Shown: positions 8,728-61,260, counted from the stretch's first letter. The stretch: 64,000 bases of DNA from Flaccisagitta enflata (GCA_965153355.1 OZ231126.1:32736001-32800000); one strand, 5' to 3'. Notes: a model not told the origin generated them from the sequence alone. Made by a program: numbers and translations.

Positions 8728-11028
8728 TCACTTGATGACGAGGGGGAAATCAATCTTCTTCGTAAGCGCCCCCGCCATTAAGGGCATTGCAGCGCCCCTG
8801 CCATTGGCGAGAGCCGTCGCCTCCGAAATGTAACGTTGACAGAGAACTACCATTTTTAGCAAGATGGCGCTCTGGAGTAGAACCCGGTCATTGGACTTGA
8901 AATGTTGAGTCGGCAGAGGGAAAGCATTTACACCAAATGCGTCCTTATAGTCAAACTTGAAACAGATGCGATGACCATCAGGAAGCACGATGCAGGTGCT
9001 AGGATGGGAATGATGAACGCGGAACTTGTCCTTAACTTGTCCTTTCGCTGCCCTGGTCCAAAACGAAACATCGAAAGACAGGGTTGAGAACATTTGAATC
9101 TTGTAGGTAGTATCAATAACCATAAGAGACTTGGCAGTCTCAATGTGAAAGAACTCAATGAAATCTTGATGATCGAGTTTGACGCTGTAACGATTGTAAA
9201 CAAACAAAACTTTCAACGAAGTCAGTTTGTACTTAACTCTGGCTTTTCCTTTTGTCTTTTGCTCGATGTGGAGACGAAGAAAGGCAGCGCTTTCTGTGAA
9301 CGCCATCTTCAATGATGGATGACGTTGAATCCAAAATCTTGTCCTTGACTCGATTTGCGCGAGTTCGAATCCCGCGATGGTCATTGAAACATGAGAGAGT
9401 AGAATTGAGGGATTAGCAAACGAATCATTGGAGGGAGAACTAAACTCGATCTTAAACTTTTTCTTCCTTAGCTCAACCAGCGCGAGTTCGAGTCCCAGGC
9501 GGGCATTTAAAACATAGGGCTGAATCCTTTTAGAGACAAACTGTTTGCCCTTTCCTAACGGGTCTCTTGCCATAAACGGATCAAAGATCTGATACGTCAA
9601 TGCTATATCATGAAAATACCTTTTGTTCTTAGAATGACGATCCTGAATGAGCGCCCGTTCGTGAATTAACTTTGATGACAGGAGGTCGTTGACCTTGATT
9701 TCCTTCCTCTGGGTCCAACCGTTCCCCACGGTATCCCAGTCTTGAACATGTGGCACAGTGCCCCAAACGCGATCGTTTGACCTGAGAAGCTTGGGATTAG
9801 TAACAGAATAAAATGCCCAAATGACGTTGCTTCTCAGAGAGAGAAAGCAACTGTTTCTCAACAACAAATCAATGAAATCAGACTTGACCTTGACTTTGAT
9901 GGCGATGGATTTAACGTCCGTCGGTCCATCCACTTTGAAGCGTAGCCATTCATTCTTAGATTGGTGCAAATGACTCGAACCTTGGTGAAACAAACTCGAT
10001 GGGGAAGGAAATCTTGGATTAAAATTTGACTTATTGGAGCGATCAAACGTTGGGGTATATCCCCCAGCCTTTCGCTTTACACTGGAGCGAAACTTGATAA
10101 AATCAGAGACCAATGTTGATACTGTGATCAACTTCCTCTTTAAAATCGTGACCTTATGACGCAACTCGTTAAGAACCGATTTGCCCACAGTGCGCGGAAT
10201 TGACAGAAACTCGATCATATCAAAACCGCATCTCCCACAAAATGAGAATAGACGATAAACCAGATCGAAATCGCCATTTCTATTAATTTTAAGGCAAGAA
10301 ACAATTGGGTCAATCACCTTTCTGGATGGATCATTATCATGACCGTTACCAGTCCACTTGAAACTTGAAGTCATAGCGGCAAACTGTGGGACGCCAAAAG
10401 CGAATCCATTCATTTCCAACGGCCAAAAGCTTTTCACCGCCGGCTTTGAATGGAAAACTTGAAACGGGACCTTGTGTTGAGGGAAGTGAATCATAACGGT
10501 TGGTAGGATGAGACAAATGAGAATCATTATAAGAGGCAAAATTCCTTTGGGCAATGAAACCCGAGCCTTGTGACCATAATGCGGCCATTCACTTTCCATC
10601 TCACCATAGAGAGGATTTAACTTAGCTTTCAGTGGCGTCTTTTGATGCGGCGTCTCTTCCGGCGCCTTTGTCTCAACGCCGTCCAATTCCTGTGACTCGG
10701 GTTGATATGAAACTCGATCGTTGGTAGCGAACTCCGGCGAGCCCACCCACGTAGAACCCTTTGAAACCTTAGACTGAGAATGAGGTGGGGAATCAAAAGT
10801 AGCACTTTTTGAGAACAGATTTGGCGAAGAAAGAGAATCAGAATTCACTCCATCTAGATCGGTAAAAGCATCGCGAACAAGCTGAGGCTTGTCACCAACT
10901 TTAACACAAAACTTATCTTTTGACAACGACTGTAGCGGCGCCGTTTCTTCAGATGAATCTTGAAAGCTTCCACGATGAGGCTCAAACCCGAGGTCACGTG
11001 GTACGGATGTAACTATCTCTTGTGACAA
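8728..11028 (-). CDS. Element-encoded ORF2, at least 766 aa, unknown family, one hydrophobic (possible transmembrane or signal-anchor) segment
   Basis: 2.3-kb stop-free frame in non-repetitive sequence; the frame is open up to about 11094; GILPLIMILICLILPTVMIHF at aa about 162-182; the track start is a TTG and the first in-frame ATG is aa 144; no RT, RNase H, integrase, protease or CCHC motif seen. Confidence 0.7.
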   Translation of the reverse strand: MSQEIVTSVPRDLGFEPHRGSFQDSSEETAPLQSLSKDKFCVKVGDKPQLVRDAFTDLDGVNSDSLSSPNLFSKSATFDSPPHSQSKVSKGSTWVGSPEFATNDRVSYQPESQELDGVETKAPEETPHQKTPLKAKLNPLYGEMESEWPHYGHKARVSLPKGILPLIMILICLILPTVMIHFPQHKVPFQVFHSKPAVKSFWPLEMNGFAFGVPQFAAMTSSFKWTGNGHDNDPSRKVIDPIVSCLKINRNGDFDLVYRLFSFCGRCGFDMIEFLSIPRTVGKSVLNELRHKVTILKRKLITVSTLVSDFIKFRSSVKRKAGGYTPTFDRSNKSNFNPRFPSPSSLFHQGSSHLHQSKNEWLRFKVDGPTDVKSIAIKVKVKSDFIDLLLRNSCFLSLRSNVIWAFYSVTNPKLLRSNDRVWGTVPHVQDWDTVGNGWTQRKEIKVNDLLSSKLIHERALIQDRHSKNKRYFHDIALTYQIFDPFMARDPLGKGKQFVSKRIQPYVLNARLGLELALVELRKKKFKIEFSSPSNDSFANPSILLSHVSMTIAGFELAQIESRTRFWIQRHPSLKMAFTESAAFLRLHIEQKTKGKARVKYKLTSLKVLFVYNRYSVKLDHQDFIEFFHIETAKSLMVIDTTYKIQMFSTLSFDVSFWTRAAKGQVKDKFRVHHSHPSTCIVLPDGHRICFKFDYKDAFGVNAFPLPTQHFKSNDRVLLQSAILLKMVVLCQRYISEATALANGRGAAMPLMAGALTKKIDFPLVIK

Positions 11029-11324
11029 CGACTGTAGCGGCGCCGTGTCCTCCGTTGTAACTGGAGCGGTTCCTTTTCGCGCCGCTGTTCCTCTTTACGG
11101 CGCTGTCTCTCTTCACGGCGCAGTTCCTCTTCACGTTCGAGGGCTTCATCCTCTACTTTACGGCGTAATTCAACTTGACGTCCTAATTCTTTGAAATATT
11201 CTTCAAGTGCGGCTTCACCGCGGGACATGGCAGCCTCGGCGGCCACTTGGCAGTACATTGTATCAGCGATTAAAATAAACCAAGGGATCGAAGGCGGATC
11301 CATCTGCGCTCCTTTATTCTGCAT
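11013..11324 (-). CDS. Element-encoded ORF1, Glu/Arg-rich coiled-coil peptide overlapping ORF2 (ORF2 is in the -1 frame)
   Basis: ATG at 11324 (MQNKGAQMD...), then EEYFKELGRQVELRRKVEDEALEREEELRREERQRRKEEQRREKE; may be the N-terminus of one frameshifted ORF1-ORF2 protein. Confidence 0.5.
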   Translation of the reverse strand: MQNKGAQMDPPSIPWFILIADTMYCQVAAEAAMSRGEAALEEYFKELGRQVELRRKVEDEALEREEELRREERQRRKEEQRREKEPLQLQRRTRRRYSRCHKR

Positions 11325-38315: not shown

Positions 38316-40475
38316 CACTCTCTTATCTTTATGATACAGCAAGAAGCGGGAATTGTGTGTGTGTATATGTCTCGAATCTATACGCTTTCTCCGCGCCTTG
38401 TCTGCTTCTCTTCTACGCTTAATGCACGTTTCAGTCGCCTCCCCGCTAAATATCCGATTGTACGGAGGCATGGGGATGTGGAGGGGCTGAGGGAGTGAGG
38501 TGCTAGAGGTGGTGAGGTCGAAATTTAGGGAGTAAGGAGTGCACTGTGCACGTCGAGCCAAATTTGACCATTCATGCAAAAATTGATAAGAAGGGCATAA
38601 AGAGGCAATCGGATGGAAGCGTGTTTTTTTCCAAATGCCGCTGCTCATGCCTTGAAACGCGATTCTATCATCAAAATAATTGCACCTCGGGGAAAAAGAT
38701 ACATCGCCGCACTTGAAAGGTTGTGAAATGGTCAGTCAGACAGACGAATGGATCAGCTCAGCCTCATGTATCATCGACTACCGCGCAATGTGGGTTGGTG
38801 GTGGAAGCGGGACGTCGAGACAGCGGGGCAGTGATCAAATTGACGTTGAATGGCCCCTTGGAGGTCGAATCTGTCAGCGATTTTCTTTCATCGCCAAAGA
38901 TGAGTGTCGTAGGTGAATCCAATGGCGCCAACACCATCGCTCTTATGCCACACCATCGCTCTAATGTCACGCTATCCCCTCAGCTGTCGCCACCACTGAT
39001 GATGTTACAGTTGTTGTGTGCAACACCATCGCTCTAGCGCAATACTAATCCCTTCGCTATCGCCACTCACGCTCCTCAATTTGACTTTTTATTGGAAATA
39101 GAATAAAGTTCGGCACAAACTCCATCAATGCTTGTGTTTTTATCTTATTTGGTAGTTTTTTGGGTTCCAAGTTCCTTCTTCAAGCAAAAGTTGTCTCTGG
39201 CAGCTTTTTCAAAGACAAAACGTCATGAAATACTTCTCTGTCTGTAAGGTTTTATCGCTTCCAGAAATCTAGCATTTTATAACATAACAAGACGCAATGC
39301 GAAACCCAATCTTGCTCTGAATAGCATTTTTACAACTCTGTAGGAGGTTTTGTTTTTCAGTAGTTGGTCATTAAATTGGTCGGTTTGTCTGTTGCTGCGT
39401 TCATACATTACATTTGCTCTGAATTGCTATTTTTGATGCTGTGAAGGAAAACAAAAATTTTGTTCATGTAATTCTGAATTCTAAGACCAGAAATTAACAA
39501 TCGCATTTGTGGAGTTCTCCATTGTGTTTTCTCCAAAAACCGAGGGTGCACTTCTGATTCGAAGTTTCACAGTTTTTTTGGCAATTTTGTGTGCAACACT
39601 ATTTCGCTCACGCCATGCTATACCTTATCCACCTATAGTGGTACTATTGCCAATGCTGACGAAGTGATGATCTTACACAGTTCTTGTGTACAACGCCATC
39701 CCTTTTGTGTAACACTATCCCGGTCACTGAGGCTTCTACTGATGAAATTACAGAATTTTTTTGTGTGCAACGCCATTAATTATGTGCAACGCTACCCTTG
39801 TCTTTGTGTCTTGTACACGGTTCTAATTCGCAATGCTAGCATTTTTATGCGTTCTAATTCGCTTCACTATCACCATTTTAAGAATGGCATTGCCGTTGCT
39901 TTTATGCCACGATATCCTCGGTGTCATCAGTCTGTATGCACTGCAAATGCGCATCAAGACTTTACAACCCGCTTTGTCCGTCCGTCCGTCGGTTGGTTAG
40001 TTGGCTGGTTGGTCACGTTTTACTTTTTTTTCATTTATTTCTTTGACCTCACTTCTCCTGCCCTAATGGTCTAGTGACCTCTGCCCACCCACACGCGACT
40101 TTGGTAGCTGTGTATCCGGCCTTGTTACCCATACTCGTACTCCTACTTGATCGTTATCCCTGCTGCAATATAGATTAACATTGCTGCTGCTGTGTAACCA
40201 TTTTACCCCATGGAAAGAATAAATCGTGTTCTCTGTTTTTAGTCGCGTGCTACGCGACTCTACACCCCACTTTGTCCGTCCGACCATCCATCGGTCTGTC
40301 GGTCGGTCTGTCACATTTTATTTTTTTATCATTCTTATTTTTCTGACCTCACTGCTCCTGCCAAGATGGTCTAGTGACCTCAAATATGGCCCCTGCCCAC
40401 CCGCACGCGACTGGGGTAACCGTGTATCCGGCCTTGCTTTTTTTTCAATTTTCTCTCAATGACCTCCACGTATTA

Positions 40476-41524: not shown

Positions 41525-44104
41525 AAACAAGGCCAACACCTATAAGTCGCGTGCAGGACAAAAATAACTGAACTGACCTGACTCCTTATTGTATCTTTTT
41601 ATCGAAAATCAGACTTAAAAGCAACCCAAAACAGACCCAAACCAGACCCAAACCAGACTCAAACCAGACTCAAACCAGACTCAAACCAGACTCAAACCAG
41701 ACTCAAACCAGACTCAAACCAGACTCAAACCGGAATTAAACCAGACCGAAACCAGACCTAAATCAGACATAAACCAGACATAAACCAGATTTAAGCCAGA
41801 CTCAAACCAGACTCAAACCAGACTCAAACCAGACTCAAACCAGACTCAAACCAGACTCAAACCAGACTCAAACCAGACTCAAACCAGATTCAAACCAGAC
41901 TTAAACCAGACCGAAACCAGGCTCAAACCAGGCTCAAACCAGGCTCAAACTAGAATCAAACCAGACTCAAACCAGACTCAAACCAGACTCAAACCAGACT
42001 CAAACCAGACTCAAACAAGAATTAAACCAGACCAAAACCAGACCAAAACCAGACCAAAACCAGACCAAAACCAGACCTAAATCAGACCTAAATCAGACCT
42101 AAATCAAACAAAAACCAGACACAAACCAGACATACACCAGACCTAACCCAGACCTAAACCAGACATAAATCAGACATGAACCAGTCTTAAACCAGACTTA
42201 AACCAGACTTAAACCAGACTTAAACCATACTTAAACCAGACTTAAACCAGACTTAAACCATACTTATCTTCAATATCATTTTAACCAGCAGACTTAAACC
42301 ATTAGACCTGCAGACTTAAACCATTAGATTTAAACCAGCAGACTTCAACCAGCAGACTTTAACCAGCAGACTTTAACCAGCAGACTTTAACCAGCAGACT
42401 TTAACCAGCAGACTTTAACCAAAATGACCAAAAATGACCAAAAATGACCAAAAATGACCAAAATGACCAAAATGACCAAAATGACCAAAGATGACCAAAG
42501 ATGACCAAAAATGACCAAAAATGACCAATATGGCCAAAATGACCAAAAATGATCAAAAATGACCAAAAATGACCAAAAATGACCAAAATGACCAAAATGA
42601 CCAAAAATGACCAAAAATGACCAAAAATGACCAAAAATGACCAAAAATGATCAAAGTGACCTAAAATGACCTAAAATGACCTCAAATGACCTGAAAAGTC
42701 CAAAAATGACCAAAAATGACCAAAAATGACCAATAATGACAAAAAATGACACAAAATGACACAAAATGACCCAAAATGACCAAAAATGATCAAAAATGAC
42801 CAAAATTGATCAAAAATGACCAAAATTGATCAAAAATGACCAAAATGACCCACAGTGTTCCCTAGCTGTGATAGGTAGGAAAAAATGACTCAGCATAGTG
42901 ACCTATTCGAGGTTGTTGCTTACATGTAGGTGCATCTCACCATATATGAAATTAAAAATTCTGTTGGGATTTTTTTGAAAAATATACAAAAAACACAATT
43001 TTTTATACAATTTGTGCCATAAATCTCTGTGATCAATTTTTAGATAATTTTCGAGTTCAGAATTGAATTTAGATGATGTTTTCTGTTTCGTTTGATATGT
43101 CACACTATATACTTTCAAAGAAAGAAAGAAAGTTCATTTTTTGAATATAATACTACAATAATAAATATCATTTTAAGTAATTTAAAGACAAAATGAACTT
43201 TTTATTCTTCTTTAAAAGTATATAGTGTGACATATCAAACGAAACATAAAACATCATCTAAGTCAGTTCTGAACTCAAAAATTATCTAAAAATTGATCAC
43301 AAAGATTTATGGCACAAATTGTAAAAAAAATTGTGTTTTTTGTATATTTTTCAAAAAAATCCCAACAGAATTTTTAGTTTCATGTATGGTGAGATGCACC
43401 TACATGTAAGCAACAACCCAGAATAGGTCACTATGCTGAGTCATTTTTTCCTACCTACCACAGCTAGGGAGCACGGTGGACCAATATGACCAAAATGCCC
43501 AAAAATGATCAAAAAAGACCAAAAATGACAAAAAATGATCAAAAATAGCCAGAAATGTCCAAAAATGACACAAAATGACCCAAAACGACCCAAAATGACC
43601 AAAATGACCAAAATGACCAAAAATGACCAAAAATGACAAAAAAATGATCAAAAATAACCAGAAATGACCCAAAATGATCAAAAATGATCAAAAATGATCA
43701 AAAATGACCAATAATGACCAATAATGACCAAAATGACCAAAATGGCGAAAATGATCAAAATGACAAAAAATGACCAAAAATGATCAAAAATGATTAAAAA
43801 TGATTAGAAATGATTAAAAATGATTATGAATGATCACAAACGACCGAAAATGACCAAAAATGACCAAAATGACCAAAATGACCAATATGAACAAAATGAC
43901 CAAAATGACCAAAATGACCAAAAATGACCAAAAATGACTAAAAGCAACCAAAAATGACCAAAAATGACTAAAAGCAACCAAAAATGACCAAAAACGACAC
44001 AAAAAAGCAAAGTGTTACCGACGGACCGACCGACCGGACCGACCGACGGACCGACCGACCGACGGACAGAGCGGGTTGTAGAGTCGCGTGCACGCGACAA
44101 AAAA
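41525..44104 (+). mobile_element. Expanded HINE-like element containing three minisatellite arrays and a nested foldback element
   Basis: Starts AAACAAGGCC..AGTCGCGTGC and ends (GACC)n..GTAGAGTCGCGTGCACGCGACAAAAAA; inside are (AAACCAGACTC)n at about 41628-42265, (TTTAACCAGCAGAC)n at about 42280-42420 and (AAAATGACCA)n at about 42421-44000. Confidence 0.65.
42851..43478. mobile_element. 628-bp foldback (near-palindromic) DNA element with CAC...GTG ends and 4-bp TSD GACC (Chapaev/Transib-like termini)
   Basis: CACAGTGTTCCCTAGCTGTGATAGGTAGG... pairs with ...CCTACCTACCACAGCTAGGGAGCACGGTG over about 290 bp; GACC at 42847-42850 and 43479-43482; interrupts the AAAATGACC array. Confidence 0.85.
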
Positions 44105-48198: not shown

Positions 48199-49556
48199 TT
48201 CCCTCCCTCATTGATACTTGCTACTTTTACACCCACGAACAGAGCATCAATCTTTATTTTTAGAGACTGTTAGAGACCAAATTCCACCACGGAATCTTGT
48301 TCCATCCTCCCAGTCATCTTTGTTACATCCTCTTTATAAATAGTGAGTGTTTCGGTTGCCGTACCTCTTTGAACAAGGGTGATGAAGACAATGATATTAC
48401 TGTTACTATTACTATCACTATTTTTGATGATTTGATCACTTCCAAACACAGCGATGTTTTGCTCTCAAGGCTGTGGCTTTTGGGTGCTTCACATAGCAAA
48501 AGATGGGAGTATCCCTTCACCCTACTTGGGTAATGTCAAGGAGCGAAAATCATAAAGATGACCATTTTCTTTTTTTCAAAATTCCTTCATCTTCTGTTTT
48601 TGTTTTGGTCTTAAAGTTTCCACTGATTTCCCAGAATTCAGCAAAATCCTGTGTAATTTTGTTACAAAAAGAACAATGTGTTTTAAAAAATCATGATATA
48701 TGAAGAAAAAAGAATAAAATATCAGAACATAAGTTATGAAAGAGCAAAGAAACAGGCAGAATTGCAATTCGGTGAAGAGTAAAAAATTATGAAAACTAAT
48801 TCAAACAATGTCAGCATATTGTAATGTTGCCAATGATTTTATTCATTATTCATTATTGTAAAGCTGTCCAAAACCGATGAGGATTTCAGTAATCTAATCC
48901 TGAATAGGACCCACAGATATATCGATACTGAAAATATAGCGAATACAAAAAAATCAACTGTAATAATATTCGTACTTAAAACTCATTTACCCTTTATCTC
49001 CTCCGAGAAAGAAAGCAGATGGCACTTCTCCCACTCATACGAATCACCGTCAACGACTCTAAGTAAGTTGCGTGTCGCTTAGTGATTTCGTCGTTGCGCA
49101 CAAAGAAAATTTCAAAATAGTCGATTATCCAGAGGAGAGTGGGCTGTTAACATTGTGGTTGGGCAGGAAAAGCAATGGTCAAACAGCACGATTTCGTTCG
49201 ATTTCGCGTCTTTCAAAACATGGCCGGATACCCGGCAATTCAGTCGCGGACGGTTGGGCAGGAGCAGTGATGCGAAAACCGCTCGGAATTCAAAAATGTG
49301 ACGGACCGACGGACGGACGGGCCGACCGACCCACCAACCGACACGACAAGGTGTAGAGACGCATGTCCGCGACTAAAAATTTGATGTACCTTGCGACAGA
49401 CAGACGGACTGACTGAACTACGAATATATCTAGAAAGCGTCCTAAAAGGGTCACATCCAGATCCTTAAAAGGTGAAGCCTCGTTTGAAACAAAGGGCCAT
49501 TGTTAACAACGGCTCAAAAGTTTCACCGATTGATGAATCAATCAACAAAGTTGAAA

Positions 49557-55056
<5,500 letters not shown>

Positions 55057-55150: not shown

Positions 55151-56077
55151 ACCTTGTATCGGTTGGTTGATCAACATGTGGAAGCAAATAACCATGCGAA
55201 TAAAAAAAACGCAGCTCTTAATTCAATAGTGAAACAGATAAATTCCTGTACAGTTATATTTAAAGATGTTTAAAAATTCTTTCATTCTAGACCAATCACC
55301 TTGGAAATAAGTATATGGACACCTTCAACTAAAGATATCACTGCTTCAAGAAAGGCTAGAAATGTTTTTAAAAATTGATCTTTGTCAAGCTATCTCCAGA
55401 ATGAATGCAATCTGGCTCTCATAGCTTTAACCGTTTAGAAATAGCAAGCAAAAGAATAAAGACATTCATTTTTTGAAAATATGAAAAAAATCAAGACTGA
55501 AGAAGTCAATTTTTTAGTGACAGTCTCTACATTGGAGATGATTCTAATCGGTTAGAGATGTATTGGCTTCTAGAAAAGCTAGAAACTTTTTTGAAAAAGG
55601 CAAATTATTCTCCATCAAAAAATCTTTAAAATGAGCATAATCTGGTTTCCGCAGCTTTAATTGTTTAGAAGTTACAAGCAAAACAATAAACCTATATCCA
55701 GAATGATTGGTTCAGCAAAGTTTGTTTAAGAGATATGAAACCAAATCATCCTGAACAAATTAAAAAGCTGTAAATAGCGTTTGAAATATAGAAAACTTGA
55801 ATCATCTGGCTCTTTTAGTATGATGTTTTGTAAATATCTGTCGTATTTTGTAAGTATCTATCCATTTCGTATTATTCATAAATGAGCAGATAAATGAAAT
55901 TCTGTAAATGCTGCTCCATCAAATTTTCAATGCTGATTTTAATAGTTTGAGCACTAACATAGTTAAATCTTTCAACGAACAATAGTATTCAATATTCAAT
56001 GATTCATAACTTGATTATTCAAAATTACTTTTATGATATGAACGAGTGAAAAGGCCATTTTCATTTTTGCAGCTGCA

Positions 56078-56157
56078 TTTTAGATCGAATGCATTAGGCC
56101 ATTATTCTTTGTTGAAACAATTATCGAAAACAAAATATTTGCAACTTTCGAACAACG

Positions 56158-56212
<55 letters not shown>

Positions 56213-56692
56213 TATAAACAATAAGGAATGCTAACACAGTGGCCAAAAGGTGAAAATTAAGAAAAAGGCAATACAATTGAAAAGTTAAAGAATAACACGC
56301 TACATTAAGACAACTGGAATAAAGCCTGGATCAATCTTTAATTTTTTAGGTGCGACAAAGCACCTCTATAACTGGCTGTGTCCGTCGGTCGGTCGGTTGG
56401 TTGGTCTGTCTCCGGGGTAACGCATTCGTTCGACGATCCACACGTCGCACCTTATTGGCCTACTTGGCCTTGTTTCTCATCGTGTGCTGATGATTGTCAG
56501 AGCTTTTTGCGTGTTGAATTCCTCTAATGTCAAGATTTTCTCCGCATCACGGAAGCGTTCCAATTCCTCGACAAGCGACGCCGGAACTTCGTCTCTCCGC
56601 CATTTGAAGCCGTTTTAGATCGAATGCATTAGGCCATTATTCTTTGTTGAAACAATTATCGAAAACAAAATATTTGCAACTTTCGAACAACG

Positions 56693-56779
<87 letters not shown>

Positions 56780-56791
56780 ACAAGATGCGCG

Positions 56792-56839
<48 letters not shown>

Positions 56840-57250
56840 ATATCAAATTATAAACAATAAGGAATGCTAACACAGTGGCCAAAAGGTGAAAATTAAGAAA
56901 AAGGCAATACAATTGAAAAGTTAAAGAATAACACGCTACATTAAGACAACTGGAATAAAGCCTGGATCAATCTTTAATTTTTTAGGTGCGACAAAGCACC
57001 TCTATAACTGGCTGTGTCCGTCGGTCGGTCGGTTGGTTGGTCTGTCTCCGGGGTAACGCATTCGTTCGACGATCCACACGTCGCACCTTATTGGCCTACT
57101 TGGCCTTGTTTCTCATCGTGTACTGATGATTGTCAGAGCTTTTTGCGCGTTGAATTCCTCTAATGTCAAGATTTTCTCCGCATCACGGAAGCGTTCCAAT
57201 TCCTCGACAAGCGACGCCGGAACTTCGTCTCTCCGCCATTCGAAGCCGTT
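56078..57250. repeat. Tandem duplication (56078-56614 and 56613-57250) covering the 3' end and downstream flank of the VHL-like gene
   Basis: Both copies start TTTTAGATCGAATGCATTAGGCC and end CTCCGCCATT(T/C)GAAGCCGTT; they differ in microsatellite content and a few substitutions. Confidence 0.9.
56477..56614 (-). pseudogene. Duplicated last approximately 45 codons of the VHL-like ORF
   Basis: Copy of 57113-57250 with 3 substitutions seen; it has no start codon of its own. Confidence 0.8.
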
Positions 57251-58135
57251 GGGGCGTCGAAGTCTTCTCAACAACCTCGTCGACAACGACTTCAACGAGG
57301 AAGCTTCGACGCGCAACTCGACTCGGAAAAATCCAGATGATCTCGGCCAAGTGGGGGCAAAAAAGACCGTCGACGAAGCGTTGGAGAAGTCGTTATCGAA
57401 GGTAATGGAGTCGTCTTGAAGACCGTCTCCCTCCGACGGCCTTTCACGCCCTTCTTCATCTGGTCTCACTCTCCAAGAAATGGCCATCCTCTCTGCGTCT
57501 TCATCGACAAACATCCAAGGACAACCAACTCGTGTTCGCACGCAGACATTCGACCACGCACGCACTCGGCCCATGCAGACGCGCACGCCATCTTCGTTGT
57601 AAGTAAACATGGTGCCAGTTTGAGAAGATCGGTTGAAGAATTGGACGTGAGAGAGCGCTTCGTGCGGTTGCGAGGCCCTTAGATGACGTCCTTGAAAATG
57701 GCCATCAATTGGATGAGGACTCGAGTATTCATCGAGGATAATATTGATGGCCGCGGATATCTGCGCAGACGTGGAAGAAGAAGTGTTTTTGGCCGTTCTT
57801 GTCGACATCATGGATGAATGAAGAGTCAGTCTCGGTGACAGATGAGATGGTTGACGCGAGCTGCTCGTCGACTCGCAATTGACCAAATGAAATCGTGCAA
57901 AAGCCATTTTCCCATCGCCGGTCCAAAATCGAAGGCTGCTTCCTAAAGGCTTGGATCCAGAGAGAGATGATTTGGCGGCGATTTCGATGCTATGAAGCGA
58001 TGGTTTTTGATGCTTTTGAGTAGTTAGGATTGTGTCCTCAGAACTTGCATGAATGTTTTCCGAGTCAAAGACGAAAATGGAAACGTCGGAGAGATTTGTG
58101 AATGTGACTTCAATGGTTGTGAGATGGGAATCCAT
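57113..58135 (-). CDS. Divergent VHL-like protein (beta domain plus VHL box), 340 aa, intronless
   Basis: HLRASQPHEALSHVQFFNRSSQTGTMFTYNEDG...TRVGCPWMFVD aligns by eye with pVHL [25 protein letters not shown]...SYRGHLWLFRD, gap-free over the VQFFNRS...WMFVD core; C-terminal SLKSLSTRLLRRL...EVPASLVEEL resembles TLKERCLQVVRSL...DIVRSLYEDL. Confidence 0.75.
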   Translation of the reverse strand: MDSHLTTIEVTFTNLSDVSIFVFDSENIHASSEDTILTTQKHQKPSLHSIEIAAKSSLSGSKPLGSSLRFWTGDGKMAFARFHLVNCESTSSSRQPSHLSPRLTLHSSMMSTRTAKNTSSSTSAQISAAINIILDEYSSPHPIDGHFQGRHLRASQPHEALSHVQFFNRSSQTGTMFTYNEDGVRVCMGRVRAWSNVCVRTRVGCPWMFVDEDAERMAISWRVRPDEEGRERPSEGDGLQDDSITFDNDFSNASSTVFFAPTWPRSSGFFRVELRVEASSLKSLSTRLLRRLRRPNGFEWRRDEVPASLVEELERFRDAEKILTLEEFNAQKALTIISTR

Positions 58136-58400
58136 GTTTTGTTCTTTATGATTGTTTGTGTATCTATGAACTTTGTTTTGTTTTATATTTAGATAACTGC
58201 GATGTGGGAAGTATTTGTTCCAATAATTTGTTATCTGTAAGGAGAAAAAAAAATAGTAAATGTGATTTAAAGTGAGAATTGTACATGGAAAATCACTGGA
58301 CCTGGCATTTTCTTCACAACAGGGAATGGGTATGTAGGTTCCATGAAAAAGGGTTGTGGGGGAATGATGTGTGAAATGCTATATTTACAAATTAAGCCTA

Positions 58401-60386
58401 CTATTTAACCAGAGGCAAAACTCTGTCAATCTCAGTCTTCTCGACACAAACTTTCTCTTGCAATTTTCGTGGCAAGTTGGAAATATCGATTCCTTGTTTG
58501 ACAATCTCCTTCAAACAAAGAGTCTGCAACGTTGGGCGAAAATCAAAGATCCTAAAATCCGAATAAATCAGTTGAACGTTGTCTTTATCGACGCTGGCGT
58601 TAACGTCGACAGATGTGCGCCAAATATCGAACAGAAACACTTGTCCGCCGACCACTGCGAAGCTTCGGCTCCGTGGGACCAACACATTGACTGGACCTCT
58701 TGATGATGGGACAGTCCTGTTAGAGGTTGAAGCGTGACTCTTCCTGTCAGCTTTTAACAGACCGATTTCAGTGTCACCATCTTGGTTCATGACTCCATGA
58801 TTTACATTTGAGGCGTTTAATCGGTCCGCGCTATTTGACTTCTTTGAGGCGCTTTCGCTTCTCGTCTGCTGTGAAAATCTGCTCCAAACTATGCTCCACT
58901 CGAAACATCTCGGGTTGAGACGCCACATCACTTGGAATGCATTGTCGCTTTTTCGGTCGCAAGACCCGAGAACGGCGTAAATTTGATCTTCGTAAATGAA
59001 TGTCGCAAGTGGACGTTGACTCGATGGTCGCTTCCCGGTCGTTTTCGTTTGTGTCCAGTGGTTGATTCGCCTGAGAAGGAAATATTGATGGACTAATTTG
59101 CATAATGCTGTGATCGTTTTCACTGTCATATTGATAGAAATATGCATGACCTTCCATACATATAACGTTAACAAAAAACTTGATAATATCAGCTTCAAAT
59201 ATAAGGGGAAGGCTTATTGCCAAGCACAGTACATTTTACGTGTTCATCAGGCTTGAAATTGATTGGATCTTATTTCTAAATCACATTTCCCGTCGCATTC
59301 ATTAATGCTGGAAAAATTGGTAGTTTTCCTCCCTTGGTCTTAGCTAATGAAGCTGGGCACAAGGTTGATACTACCTTAGTGCTTAATGTTAGGCATTGTT
59401 AGCACTTCATGGCTTCTCCATCCGACGTCTAGGAGAATATCAGACTTGATACAAAAACGTCCTGATACTTCAAGTAAAACTTTCCGCCCTTCTCTTTCGT
59501 ATTGAGATCTTGTTGGCGGTGTAGCCATTCAGGAGCATAAGGTGAGAGGCTAGTGAGGTGATTGACTACGTCAGTGTGGGGTGTCAGTTGTTAATTGCTA
59601 CCTGAATGGACGCCGACGAGAATTCGACGTCTTACTACTAACTACTTACGTGTCGAGAACGTAGACGCGATCGTAGCAATTGCCAACAATGCTAACTCTA
59701 TCTCCGACGAGATTCGCCTCCTGGCACCCGAAGAGAATCATGAATCGGTCTTCCAACGCGCAAACGGAATGAAAGGCGACTCCTCCAATCGGTTTCCCGG
59801 GCGAGTCTCCAGTCGTAGTCAACAGATTCCAAGTCATAGACAAAAAACAAAGTCTGTAGACTCGAGACCGCCGATGATTCGGCGTTTTGCCGCGGAAGAC
59901 GTACATCGCGTCTCCGATGACGCACGCTGATTGGCCGGATCCCATCGGCGGCGGAACGTCAACGCCGGTTACTTCCGGTCGCGACCAAGAATTGGTTTTA
60001 GGATCGAATCGGAATAAAATTGTACAGAATTCGCCGTTAGCTAGGCGACCGCCGAAAAGATACGCTTGACCACGCCACGAAACGCAGACGTGACCGATTC
60101 TTGCCCGGGGATGAGTCATGGCTTGCGCTGGCTGGTTGTTGCTGTTGTTGTTGTTGTTGTTGCTGTTGATGTTACTCAGAGGCGCGGAGACGACGCGCCA
60201 GATTAGCGAAGAGGGATCCAAAACATAAACGTTCAAAAACCGATTCTGTCTACGATGATTCAAAATATCGTCAACCGTGACATCGCCGCCGAAAGAATAA
60301 ACTTTTCCCTCGAGGACGACCGAAGGGTGGAATTCTTGGCGTGGATTTCCTAAGGAAGATCCAAATTGTTTTGAAGAACGCCACAT
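58401..60386 (-). CDS. Kelch-domain protein, KLHDC3-like, with C-terminal BC/Cul2 box, 468 aa; exons 60386-59650 and 59070-58401
   Basis: KVYSFGG, HPRARIGH..AYLFGG, LFRFDPKTNSWSRPEVTG and GQSACVIGDAMYVF repeats; phase-2 intron AC|GTAAGT...TTCTCAG|G; tail SDFRIFDFRPTLQTLCLKEIVKQGIDISNLP resembles KLHDC3 SDLHILDFSPSLKTLCKLAVIQYNLDQSCLP. Confidence 0.85.
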
Positions 60387-60764
60387 AATTAATGATTTGA
60401 TTTAGCCACGAAGAAGAACGATGAAATTTGCGTGGGTCACAATTTAAAAGTTCGCAATGTTCAGGATCATAAGATGTATGAGAAATGAATTATTGTGGAG
60501 GCAGAGCGAAAATAAGAAGTGTGAAGAAGGATTAAAAAAAAAACGCTTTTTACCCTCTTCGAAGACAATCTGATTGCTAGTGGATTTATTCCCGCGAAAT
60601 AGACTCATGTCGCCAACTGTCAATTGACGAGTGGAGAGGAGAAATTCCATTGTTCGTCAACTCACCGAGTATTCGGGATCTCATGGTGAAACTTGATTTC
60701 GACCCGAGGAAGAATTGATGGATTAGGAGAGACGAAGAATCAACACTGACCGAAAAAGACAGAG

Positions 60765-61260
60765 AGACAGAAAGACAAAAAGACAGTTATAGTTTGAAAG
60801 AGAGACAGAGAAAGAGAAACAGAAGGACGGGAACACAGGGAGATAGACAAACAGAAACACAAATAGACAGAAAGAATAAGAGAACACAGGAAGACAGCGA
60901 GAAAGAGGAAAGACAGAAATACTGAAAAAGATTGACAAAAAGACAAAAAGACAGTTATAGTTAAAAAGATAGTCAGAGAAAGAGAAACAGAAGGACGGGA
61001 ACACAGAGAGATAGACAAACAGAAAGACAAATAGACAGAAAGAATAGAGACTGAGGTAGAGATCAAGTAAGACAGTGACACAGGAAGACAGCAAGAAGGA
61101 GAGAAAGCGAGAAAGACAGAAATATTGAATAAGAATGACAAAAAGACGAAAAGATAGAAAGACAAAAAGACAACGAGACAAAGAGACAAAAAGACAAAAA
61201 GATAAAAGACAAAAAGACAAAGAGACTTAAAGACAAAAAGATAAAAAGCGAAAAGACAAA
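60765..61260. repeat. Purine-rich degenerate repeat with an internal duplication of about 175 bp and (AAAAGACA)n
   Basis: AAAGACAGTTATAGTT...AGAAAGAGAAACAGAAGGACGGGAACACAG occurs twice. Confidence 0.7.

Follow-up and report, generated by a model that had tools for sequence, protein, structure and literature searches.

Two genes that lie head to tail in Flaccisagitta enflata, one resembling KLHDC3 and the other resembling VHL, raise the question of whether the pair yields one fused protein, one shared transcript or two separate products. We addressed this within a window of 64,000 nt (GCA_965153355.1 OZ231126.1:32736001-32800000; all positions are counted from its first letter), where both genes occupy the minus strand in tandem with intact reading frames. 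The initial annotation had read the pair as a two-headed adaptor of Cullin-2 RING ligases (CRL2), or else as an operon resolved by spliced-leader (SL) trans-splicing. We instead favor, with a probability of roughly 80%, two separate proteins from two real genes: the Kelch gene (two exons, 468 amino acids) would end translation at its own TAG, and the VHL-like gene (one exon, 340 amino acids) would start translation at the ATG at 58135, each protein being a putative substrate receptor of the Elongin BC/Cullin-2 type. The parts of the two genes are as follows, a slash marking the boundary between exon and intron here and below.

59650..60386, minus strand: coding part of exon 1 of the KLHDC3-like Kelch gene, with the ATG at 60386 (translation, Pfam, PDB match).
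59071..59649, minus strand: Kelch intron of 579 nt, donor CAC/GTAAGT, acceptor TTCTCAG/G (sequence reading; spliced frame open).
58401..59070, minus strand: Kelch exon 2, with the stop codon TAG at 58403-58401 (alignment to human KLHDC3).
58532-58503 and 58475-58449, minus strand: BC-box-like TLQTLCLKEI and Cul2-box-like LPRKLQEKV of the Kelch protein (KLHDC3 alignment).
57113..58135, minus strand: VHL-like gene, single exon, 340 amino acids plus stop (relatives, profile-to-PDB search, Foldseek, VIA-align).
57664-57158, minus strand: predicted VHL-fold region, approximately residues 158-326 (predicted model on pVHL).
57298-57269 and 57223-57197, minus strand: BC-box-like SLKSLSTRLL and Cul2-box-like VPASLVEEL of the VHL-like protein (alignment to the pVHL boxes).

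The upstream gene is predicted from its sequence to encode a KLHDC3-like Kelch propeller with a C-terminal tail that carries BC-box-like and Cul2-box-like stretches. Spliced, its coding sequence (60386..59650 joined to 59070..58401) gives 468 amino acids with no internal stop, and the intron donor matches 6 of 7 consensus positions. Exon 1 matches the Pfam family Kelch_KLHDC2_KLHL20_DRC7 (PF24681) at 3.8e-28 (98.7 bits; cut-off, 50), and exon 2 carries the same match on at 1.1e-5. In a PDB search, the closest solved structure to exon 1 was human KLHDC3 (9d1i_A, 3e-24), with residues 13-221 of the exon aligned on residues 11-198 of the chain; LZTR1 (2.3e-18) and KLHDC2 (∼5e-9) were the runners-up. 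Exon 2 likewise found KLHDC3 as its best match (1.3e-8), its residues 122-208 aligning with human residues 285-366 of 383, the box region included. The direct Pfam and PDB searches thus agree with the KLHDC3-like identity that had initially been assigned to this gene. Human KLHDC3 itself is a CRL2 C-degron receptor.

The match is colinear with the human chain from residue ∼11 to residue 366 of 383, and past the aligned box region 14 residues remain in the Kelch protein versus ∼17 in human KLHDC3; the Kelch stop therefore sits at the usual C-terminus of the family. Both TLQTLCLKEI and LPRKLQEKV fit the BC-box and Cul2-box consensus patterns. The reading frame after the last sense codon continues as TAG TAG GCT TAA, that is, with three stops within four codons, and this rules out stop-codon read-through of the Kelch gene. 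Compared with human KLHDC3 (9d1i), the protein thus shares a propeller that is colinear from the N- to the C-terminus, an aligned box region and a similar C-terminal end, while the gene differs in having only one intron and the protein in carrying two low-complexity inserts that are absent from the human sequence in the alignments. One insert, rich in Asn (NINSNNNNNNSNN), falls between blades in the exon 1 part (window 60120-60180), and the other is a Ser/Asn-rich segment of ∼60 residues in exon 2 (window 58700-58880).

The downstream gene would encode a divergent VHL-like protein, judging from sequence comparison and modeling. Its kinship with VHL comes from transitive and profile evidence and from a model built on a shallow alignment, because the protein's own sequence fails the Pfam VHL model (PF01847): this model went unmatched at an E value of ≤1 with the whole protein, and at ≤10 with residues 150-340 and two sub-parts thereof. 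Likewise, phmmer against the PDB returned 0 matches at an E value of ≤10, and a word-indexed protein search with the protein alone found nothing. The Pfam and phmmer failures are a test of detection, not of fold. An exhaustive HMMER search of 1.84 billion representatives did return six relatives at an E value of ≤1e-3, the best at 1.3e-16. One of them, P0006 (E value of 1e-4 to the VHL-like query), passes Pfam VHL at 6.2e-10 and matches human VHL in the PDB at 3.3e-6, and three further relatives of ∼300 amino acids bear a precomputed VHL domain. Family profiles pointed the same way: with a 6-row profile (A1), all 24 PDB matches at an E value of ≤10 were VHL chains (best 0.037), and with a 14-row profile (A2) again 24 of 24 were VHL, the best at 3.6e-4 and with matches across the beta and alpha domains. 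The top three ESM Atlas clusters were also VHL (scores of 0.87 to 0.88; 175 to 181 shared features), which we treat as a lead only. The VHL identity proposed for this gene at the outset was thus borne out by relatives, family profile and predicted fold, though not by the protein's own sequence against Pfam VHL.

As for that fold, AlphaFold gave no usable model from the single sequence (predicted local distance difference test [pLDDT] of 33), whereas a 14-sequence alignment raised the pLDDT to 75-88 over residues 160-225, with a mean of 60. Foldseek placed this 14-row model on pVHL with an E value of 2e-6 and a template modeling (TM) score on the target of 0.6 to 0.7, and VIA-align superposed residues 158-326 of the model on pVHL residues 68-198 with a Z score of 12 to 13 and a root-mean-square deviation of 3.2 to 3.8 A over ∼130 of 133 to 150 residues. 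The predicted product would accordingly comprise a beta sandwich, a three-helix alpha domain with BC and Cul2 boxes, and an extra N-terminal beta-rich part. SLKSLSTRLL and VPASLVEEL, a putative BC box and a putative Cul2 box by consensus pattern, align to the box region of pVHL and are kept in the relatives, with the box Cys changed to Ser. Through these motifs and their counterparts in the Kelch protein, we infer that both proteins dock on Elongin C/Cul2.

Likeness to human pVHL (1vcb, 1lm8) is therefore one of predicted architecture, in that the beta sandwich and alpha domain of the model superpose and the box stretches align. Identity is ∼18 to 20%, the window protein has ∼155 extra N-terminal residues, and in addition to the Cys-to-Ser change in the BC box, a Tyr and a His that P0006 shares with human VHL are replaced by Met and Cys; a Trp is kept. 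The Tyr/His pair presumably corresponds to the hydroxyproline contacts Tyr98 and His115 of human VHL, and human pVHL is the CRL2 receptor for hydroxylated HIF-alpha. Because two positions shared by human VHL and P0006 are changed, the VHL-like protein probably does not read hydroxyproline as pVHL does, and with Met and Cys in these columns we file it as a VHL-like paralogue rather than as a HIF-binding VHL orthologue. The protein has 9 lysines in 340 residues, and a lysine-free stretch of 165 residues (117-281; window 57290-57787) spans its VHL-fold beta domain. Human VHL is described as a "lysine desert" with three lysines (PMC10665810), and both proteins thus lack lysines along much of the beta domain.

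Four VHL-domain proteins (P0006, P0014, P0015 and P0016; 288 to 303 amino acids, from environmental and run assemblies) are only 21 to 24% identical to the window protein but have the same layout of N-terminal beta-rich part, VHL beta domain, BC box and Cul2 box; unlike the window protein, they pass Pfam VHL and keep the Tyr/His pair. All seven relatives with the N-terminal part begin with Met, six of them at 1 to 25 residues before the first conserved strand. P0017 has a 39-residue N-terminal extension, which is unlike the Kelch protein. The contigs of the relatives span 963 to 1810 nt, too short to encode the 468-residue Kelch part as well. Pattern searches of metagenome contigs for related loci retrieved no relatives, neither among the 58 pattern matches of the P0006 query nor among the 163 of a closer alignment (A3).

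The N-terminal part itself (residues 1-157; window 57664-58135) is common to P0005, P0006, P0009 and P0014-P0017. In a profile-profile comparison it is similar to the front half of the VHL beta domain in the same protein (hhalign probability of 80.7%, E value of 1.3e-5, 60 columns), and many VIA alignments place the strand at residues 67-84 on the first pVHL strand. This part may reflect an internal duplication or strand donation.

In and around the short gap between the two genes and beyond the VHL-like stop, the following features were located.

58136..58400, minus strand: intergenic gap of 265 nt (composition, signal list, blastn).
58404..58412, minus strand: proposed fusion donor CTG/GTTAAA, with the G of GT at 58409 (consensus match).
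58235..58254, minus strand: acceptor-like site, a T-run followed by CTCCTTACAG, with 58234 as the first "exon" base (pyrimidine count, shuffles).
58181..58187, minus strand: TATAAAA, 52 nt before the VHL-like ATG (motif scan).
56973..56978, minus strand: ATTAAA, the first canonical poly(A) signal past the VHL-like stop, 135 nt downstream (signal scan).

Coordinates and signal scan both agree with the initial description of 265 nt between the Kelch stop and the VHL-like ATG (58135-58133), on the same strand, with neither AATAAA nor ATTAAA in these 265 nt. The gap (58400-58136) is 32% G+C and 9% G and unique in the window, blastn giving the self-match only. Weaker poly(A) signal variants are present, namely, AATATA at 58385 and 58189, TATAAA at 58187, AAGAAA at 58314 and TTTAAA at 58271. 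The TATAAAA could be a TATA box of the VHL-like gene or, as a TATAAA variant, a poly(A) signal of the Kelch gene; with TATAWAW occurring at 0.45 per kb per strand in the window, it is weak evidence.

The acceptor-like site at 58234 is the sole feature of the finding that is not readily explained by chance. Its stretch (ATTTTTTTTTCTCCTT-ACAG/) has 15 pyrimidines in 16 positions, compared with 12 in the real Kelch acceptor and 8 to 13 in four acceptor-like sites of a protease gene in the same window. Only 12 sites as strong occur on both strands of the 64 kb, and when the gap was shuffled 5000 times with dinucleotides preserved, only 14 shuffles held such an acceptor, a test that overstates its rarity because homopolymer T-runs arise by slippage. 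The site is hence as strong as first claimed, as a motif only: it may serve as the 3′ splice site for an intron in the 5′ untranslated region (5′ UTR), as a trans-splice acceptor or not in splicing at all. Also correct on re-reading were the 33 stop-free codons (99 nt, 58234 to 58136) said to run in the frame of the ATG at 58135. This 99-nt stretch is 26% G+C, 52% A and 7% G, with a third-position G+C fraction (GC3) of 0.27, versus 47 to 51% G+C and a GC3 of 0.50 to 0.56 in the three coding blocks. Coding-type composition starts sharply at the ATG at 58135, which no other in-frame ATG precedes in the open frame and which has an A at −3 and a G at +4.

Could the two reading frames nevertheless end up in one protein? 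In the fusion proposed at the outset, 58410 would be spliced to 58234 to give an 839-residue Kelch-BCbox-VHL-BCbox protein. The frame arithmetic is correct, the join being in frame and without a stop, and the acceptor-like site is strong, but the donor is at background level: CTG/GTTAAA matches 3 of 7 consensus positions, a score that 42% of the window's 6462 GTs equal or exceed, and its matching phase is expected because the final 90 nt of the Kelch coding sequence contain five GTs, four of them phase 0. The neighboring protease donors that had been called similarly weak score higher (CAG/GTTAGA, 5/7; AAG/GTTGAT, 4/7; both themselves putative), probable donors of that gene matching 4 to 6 of 7 positions. 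The linker, moreover, has a composition unlike the coding blocks, the Kelch protein has its C-terminus at the same point as human KLHDC3, with tandem stops beyond it, and the VHL-like relatives have their initial Met at the corresponding position. A search for fused relatives among proteins of 668 to 2000 amino acids found none, which is weak evidence. On these grounds the two-headed CRL2 adaptor was abandoned, and we regard a fusion as extremely unlikely. Splicing of the Kelch exon-1 donor to 58234 was rejected as well, this join leading to an immediate stop (AC + A TAA). A different doubt concerns the VHL-like frame itself, which might be a silent or decaying copy, such as a retrocopy, that came to lie behind the Kelch gene by accident. 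It is intronless, its 3′ end falls in a recently duplicated, repeat-rich stretch and a dispersed repeat directly follows its stop. Yet the 340-codon frame is intact, conserved blocks of the family including the BC and Cul2 boxes are kept, coding-type composition starts sharply at the ATG, no poly(A) remnant follows the stop, and the 165-residue lysine-free stretch is kept as in human VHL (PMC10665810). A silent copy is therefore very unlikely in our estimate.

Co-transcription of two intact genes is a different matter. SL-resolved operons, with same-strand genes a few hundred nucleotides apart, are known from nematodes, flatworms, tunicates and others, and the locus resembles them in its same-strand genes, short gap and an unpaired 3′ splice-site motif, as a motif only, before the downstream ATG; it departs from them in that no canonical poly(A) signal lies upstream at the customary spacing. 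Such an operon would produce one precursor from the Kelch promoter, with the Kelch 3′ end formed in the 166 nt past the stop and SL trans-splicing at 58234, resulting in two monocistronic mRNAs. The absence of AATAAA and ATTAAA from the gap fits this, as does the rarity of so strong an acceptor-like site without a convincing partner donor, and co-regulation would be sensible for two products that feed the same ligase scaffold. The acceptor is preceded by all three ATGs of the gap (58344, 58308 and 58286), and the 99 nt that follow contain none, though this adds little because at 7% G such an absence is expected about half the time. Against an operon, an Rfam scan of the window found no family, SL RNA included, and T-run slippage inflates the apparent rarity of the acceptor. 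The ∼170 nt before the Kelch ATG contain no AG, so that the Kelch gene shows no leader-acceptor close to its start. An operon is thus a tentative possibility that we consider unlikely. Alternatively, since dicistronic mRNAs are known in some animals, both open reading frames (ORFs) might share one polyadenylated transcript ending after the ATTAAA at 56978, perhaps with a small intron ending at 58234 removed, and with reinitiation or internal entry allowing translation of the VHL-like ORF. A canonical poly(A) signal is indeed first encountered at 56978, and a GTAAAT 13 nt past the Kelch stop could pair with the acceptor. However, this donor (TTT/GTAAAT) is no better than background, the gap does contain poly(A)-signal variants, and on an unspliced transcript two out-of-frame upstream ORFs (58344 and 58286) would precede the VHL-like ATG. 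We rate a mature dicistronic mRNA as quite improbable.

Two genes with two separate products thus remain the preferred reading, and several observations weigh against it. The VHL-like protein's own sequence fails the Pfam VHL model. The contigs of its relatives may be genomic fragments rather than transcripts, and their Met starts come from automatic gene calls. Separate mature mRNAs are deduced, the Kelch gene lacks a canonical poly(A) signal in the gap, and the strong unpaired acceptor-like site fits co-transcription better than it fits a simple independent promoter. Finally, 265 nt is a short gap for a window with ∼4 recognizable genes in 64 kb. This distance between two receptors of one ligase type looks non-random, because the rest of the window is rich in microsatellites and dispersed repeats and has few recognizable genes, although the argument comes from a single window. 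For the 5′ end of the VHL-like mRNA, the odds of its own start site in the gap, or of a short 5′ UTR intron, are about even, and co-transcription with processing at 58234 appears unlikely; the choice among own promoter, SL operon and dicistronic mRNA turns on priors and weak motifs.

To look at RNA, we compared ∼6/100 of a poly(A) RNA-Seq run from the same study (X1; 12.2 million records; a run not known to contain the locus) with positions 56300-60900. Ten reads matched, all partially and all in a repeat at 60612-60900, with none on either gene or the gap, which makes them uninformative on expression, fusion and operon. These reads stop at 60753, continue with a shared unlike sequence and have A in place of C at 60768; a different copy of the GACAGA-rich tandem repeat at 60728-61046 is their probable source.

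Downstream of the VHL-like gene, self-comparison of the window detected one further feature.

56066..57250, minus strand: tandem duplication with units of ∼636 and 535 nt (self-comparison of the window).

The duplication takes in the last 45 VHL-like codons, the 3′ flank and (CT)n/(GT)n microsatellites. Positions 56209-56614 and 56845-57250 are 99.3% identical over 406 nt, and 56066-56209 and 56603-56744 are 97% identical; the partial VHL-like copy at 56477-56614 has 2 amino-acid differences. Either the stretch was duplicated recently or the assembly is in error at the microsatellites. The dispersed repeat directly after the VHL-like stop (56990-57075) combines a core of the (CCGA/CAGA) type with a short hairpin (GGTGC...GCACC). 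It recurs in the window, for example at 44037-44083 and 39960-40001, and ORF translations resembling "PTDRPTDG" occur at ∼26.2, 40.1, 43.9, 46.0, 49.2 and 52.3 kb.

Elsewhere in the window, a trypsin-like serine protease gene (49530-54214, plus strand) is convergent with the pair and has at least six exons (IVNGH..., ...AAHC..., ...GDSGGPLVC...). The exon between "LQKV..." and "GDSGGP" was not found; the gene may be incomplete, or a small exon may have been missed. None of 15 further long ORFs of the window had a Pfam match above threshold. The longest open frame, of 788 codons (8731-11094, minus strand), has no Pfam match at an E value of ≤0.01.

Most likely, then, this locus holds nothing more unusual than a KLHDC3-like gene followed in tandem by a divergent VHL-like one, a combination of mild functional interest. 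In full-text literature searches, no paper turned up that places KLHDC3 and VHL genes together on a transcript or in an operon. In a bolder and doubtful view, the pair would be a true polycistronic unit with one promoter and SL addition at 58234, its two receptors competing for Elongin BC-Cul2 and the VHL-like partner, with the Tyr/His pair lost and an N-terminal beta-rich part gained, reading a new kind of degron. If the genes were co-transcribed, they would illustrate, as a small case from nature, how one cullin scaffold can be supplied in concert with two unrelated receptors, and would offer a handle on receptor competition. The VHL-like gene represents a barely sampled branch, with only 6 relatives among the 1.84 billion representatives searched. 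With its added N-terminal part and, in this copy, a hydroxyproline pocket that appears altered, this branch is relevant to the evolution of VHL specificity beyond the HIF pathway.

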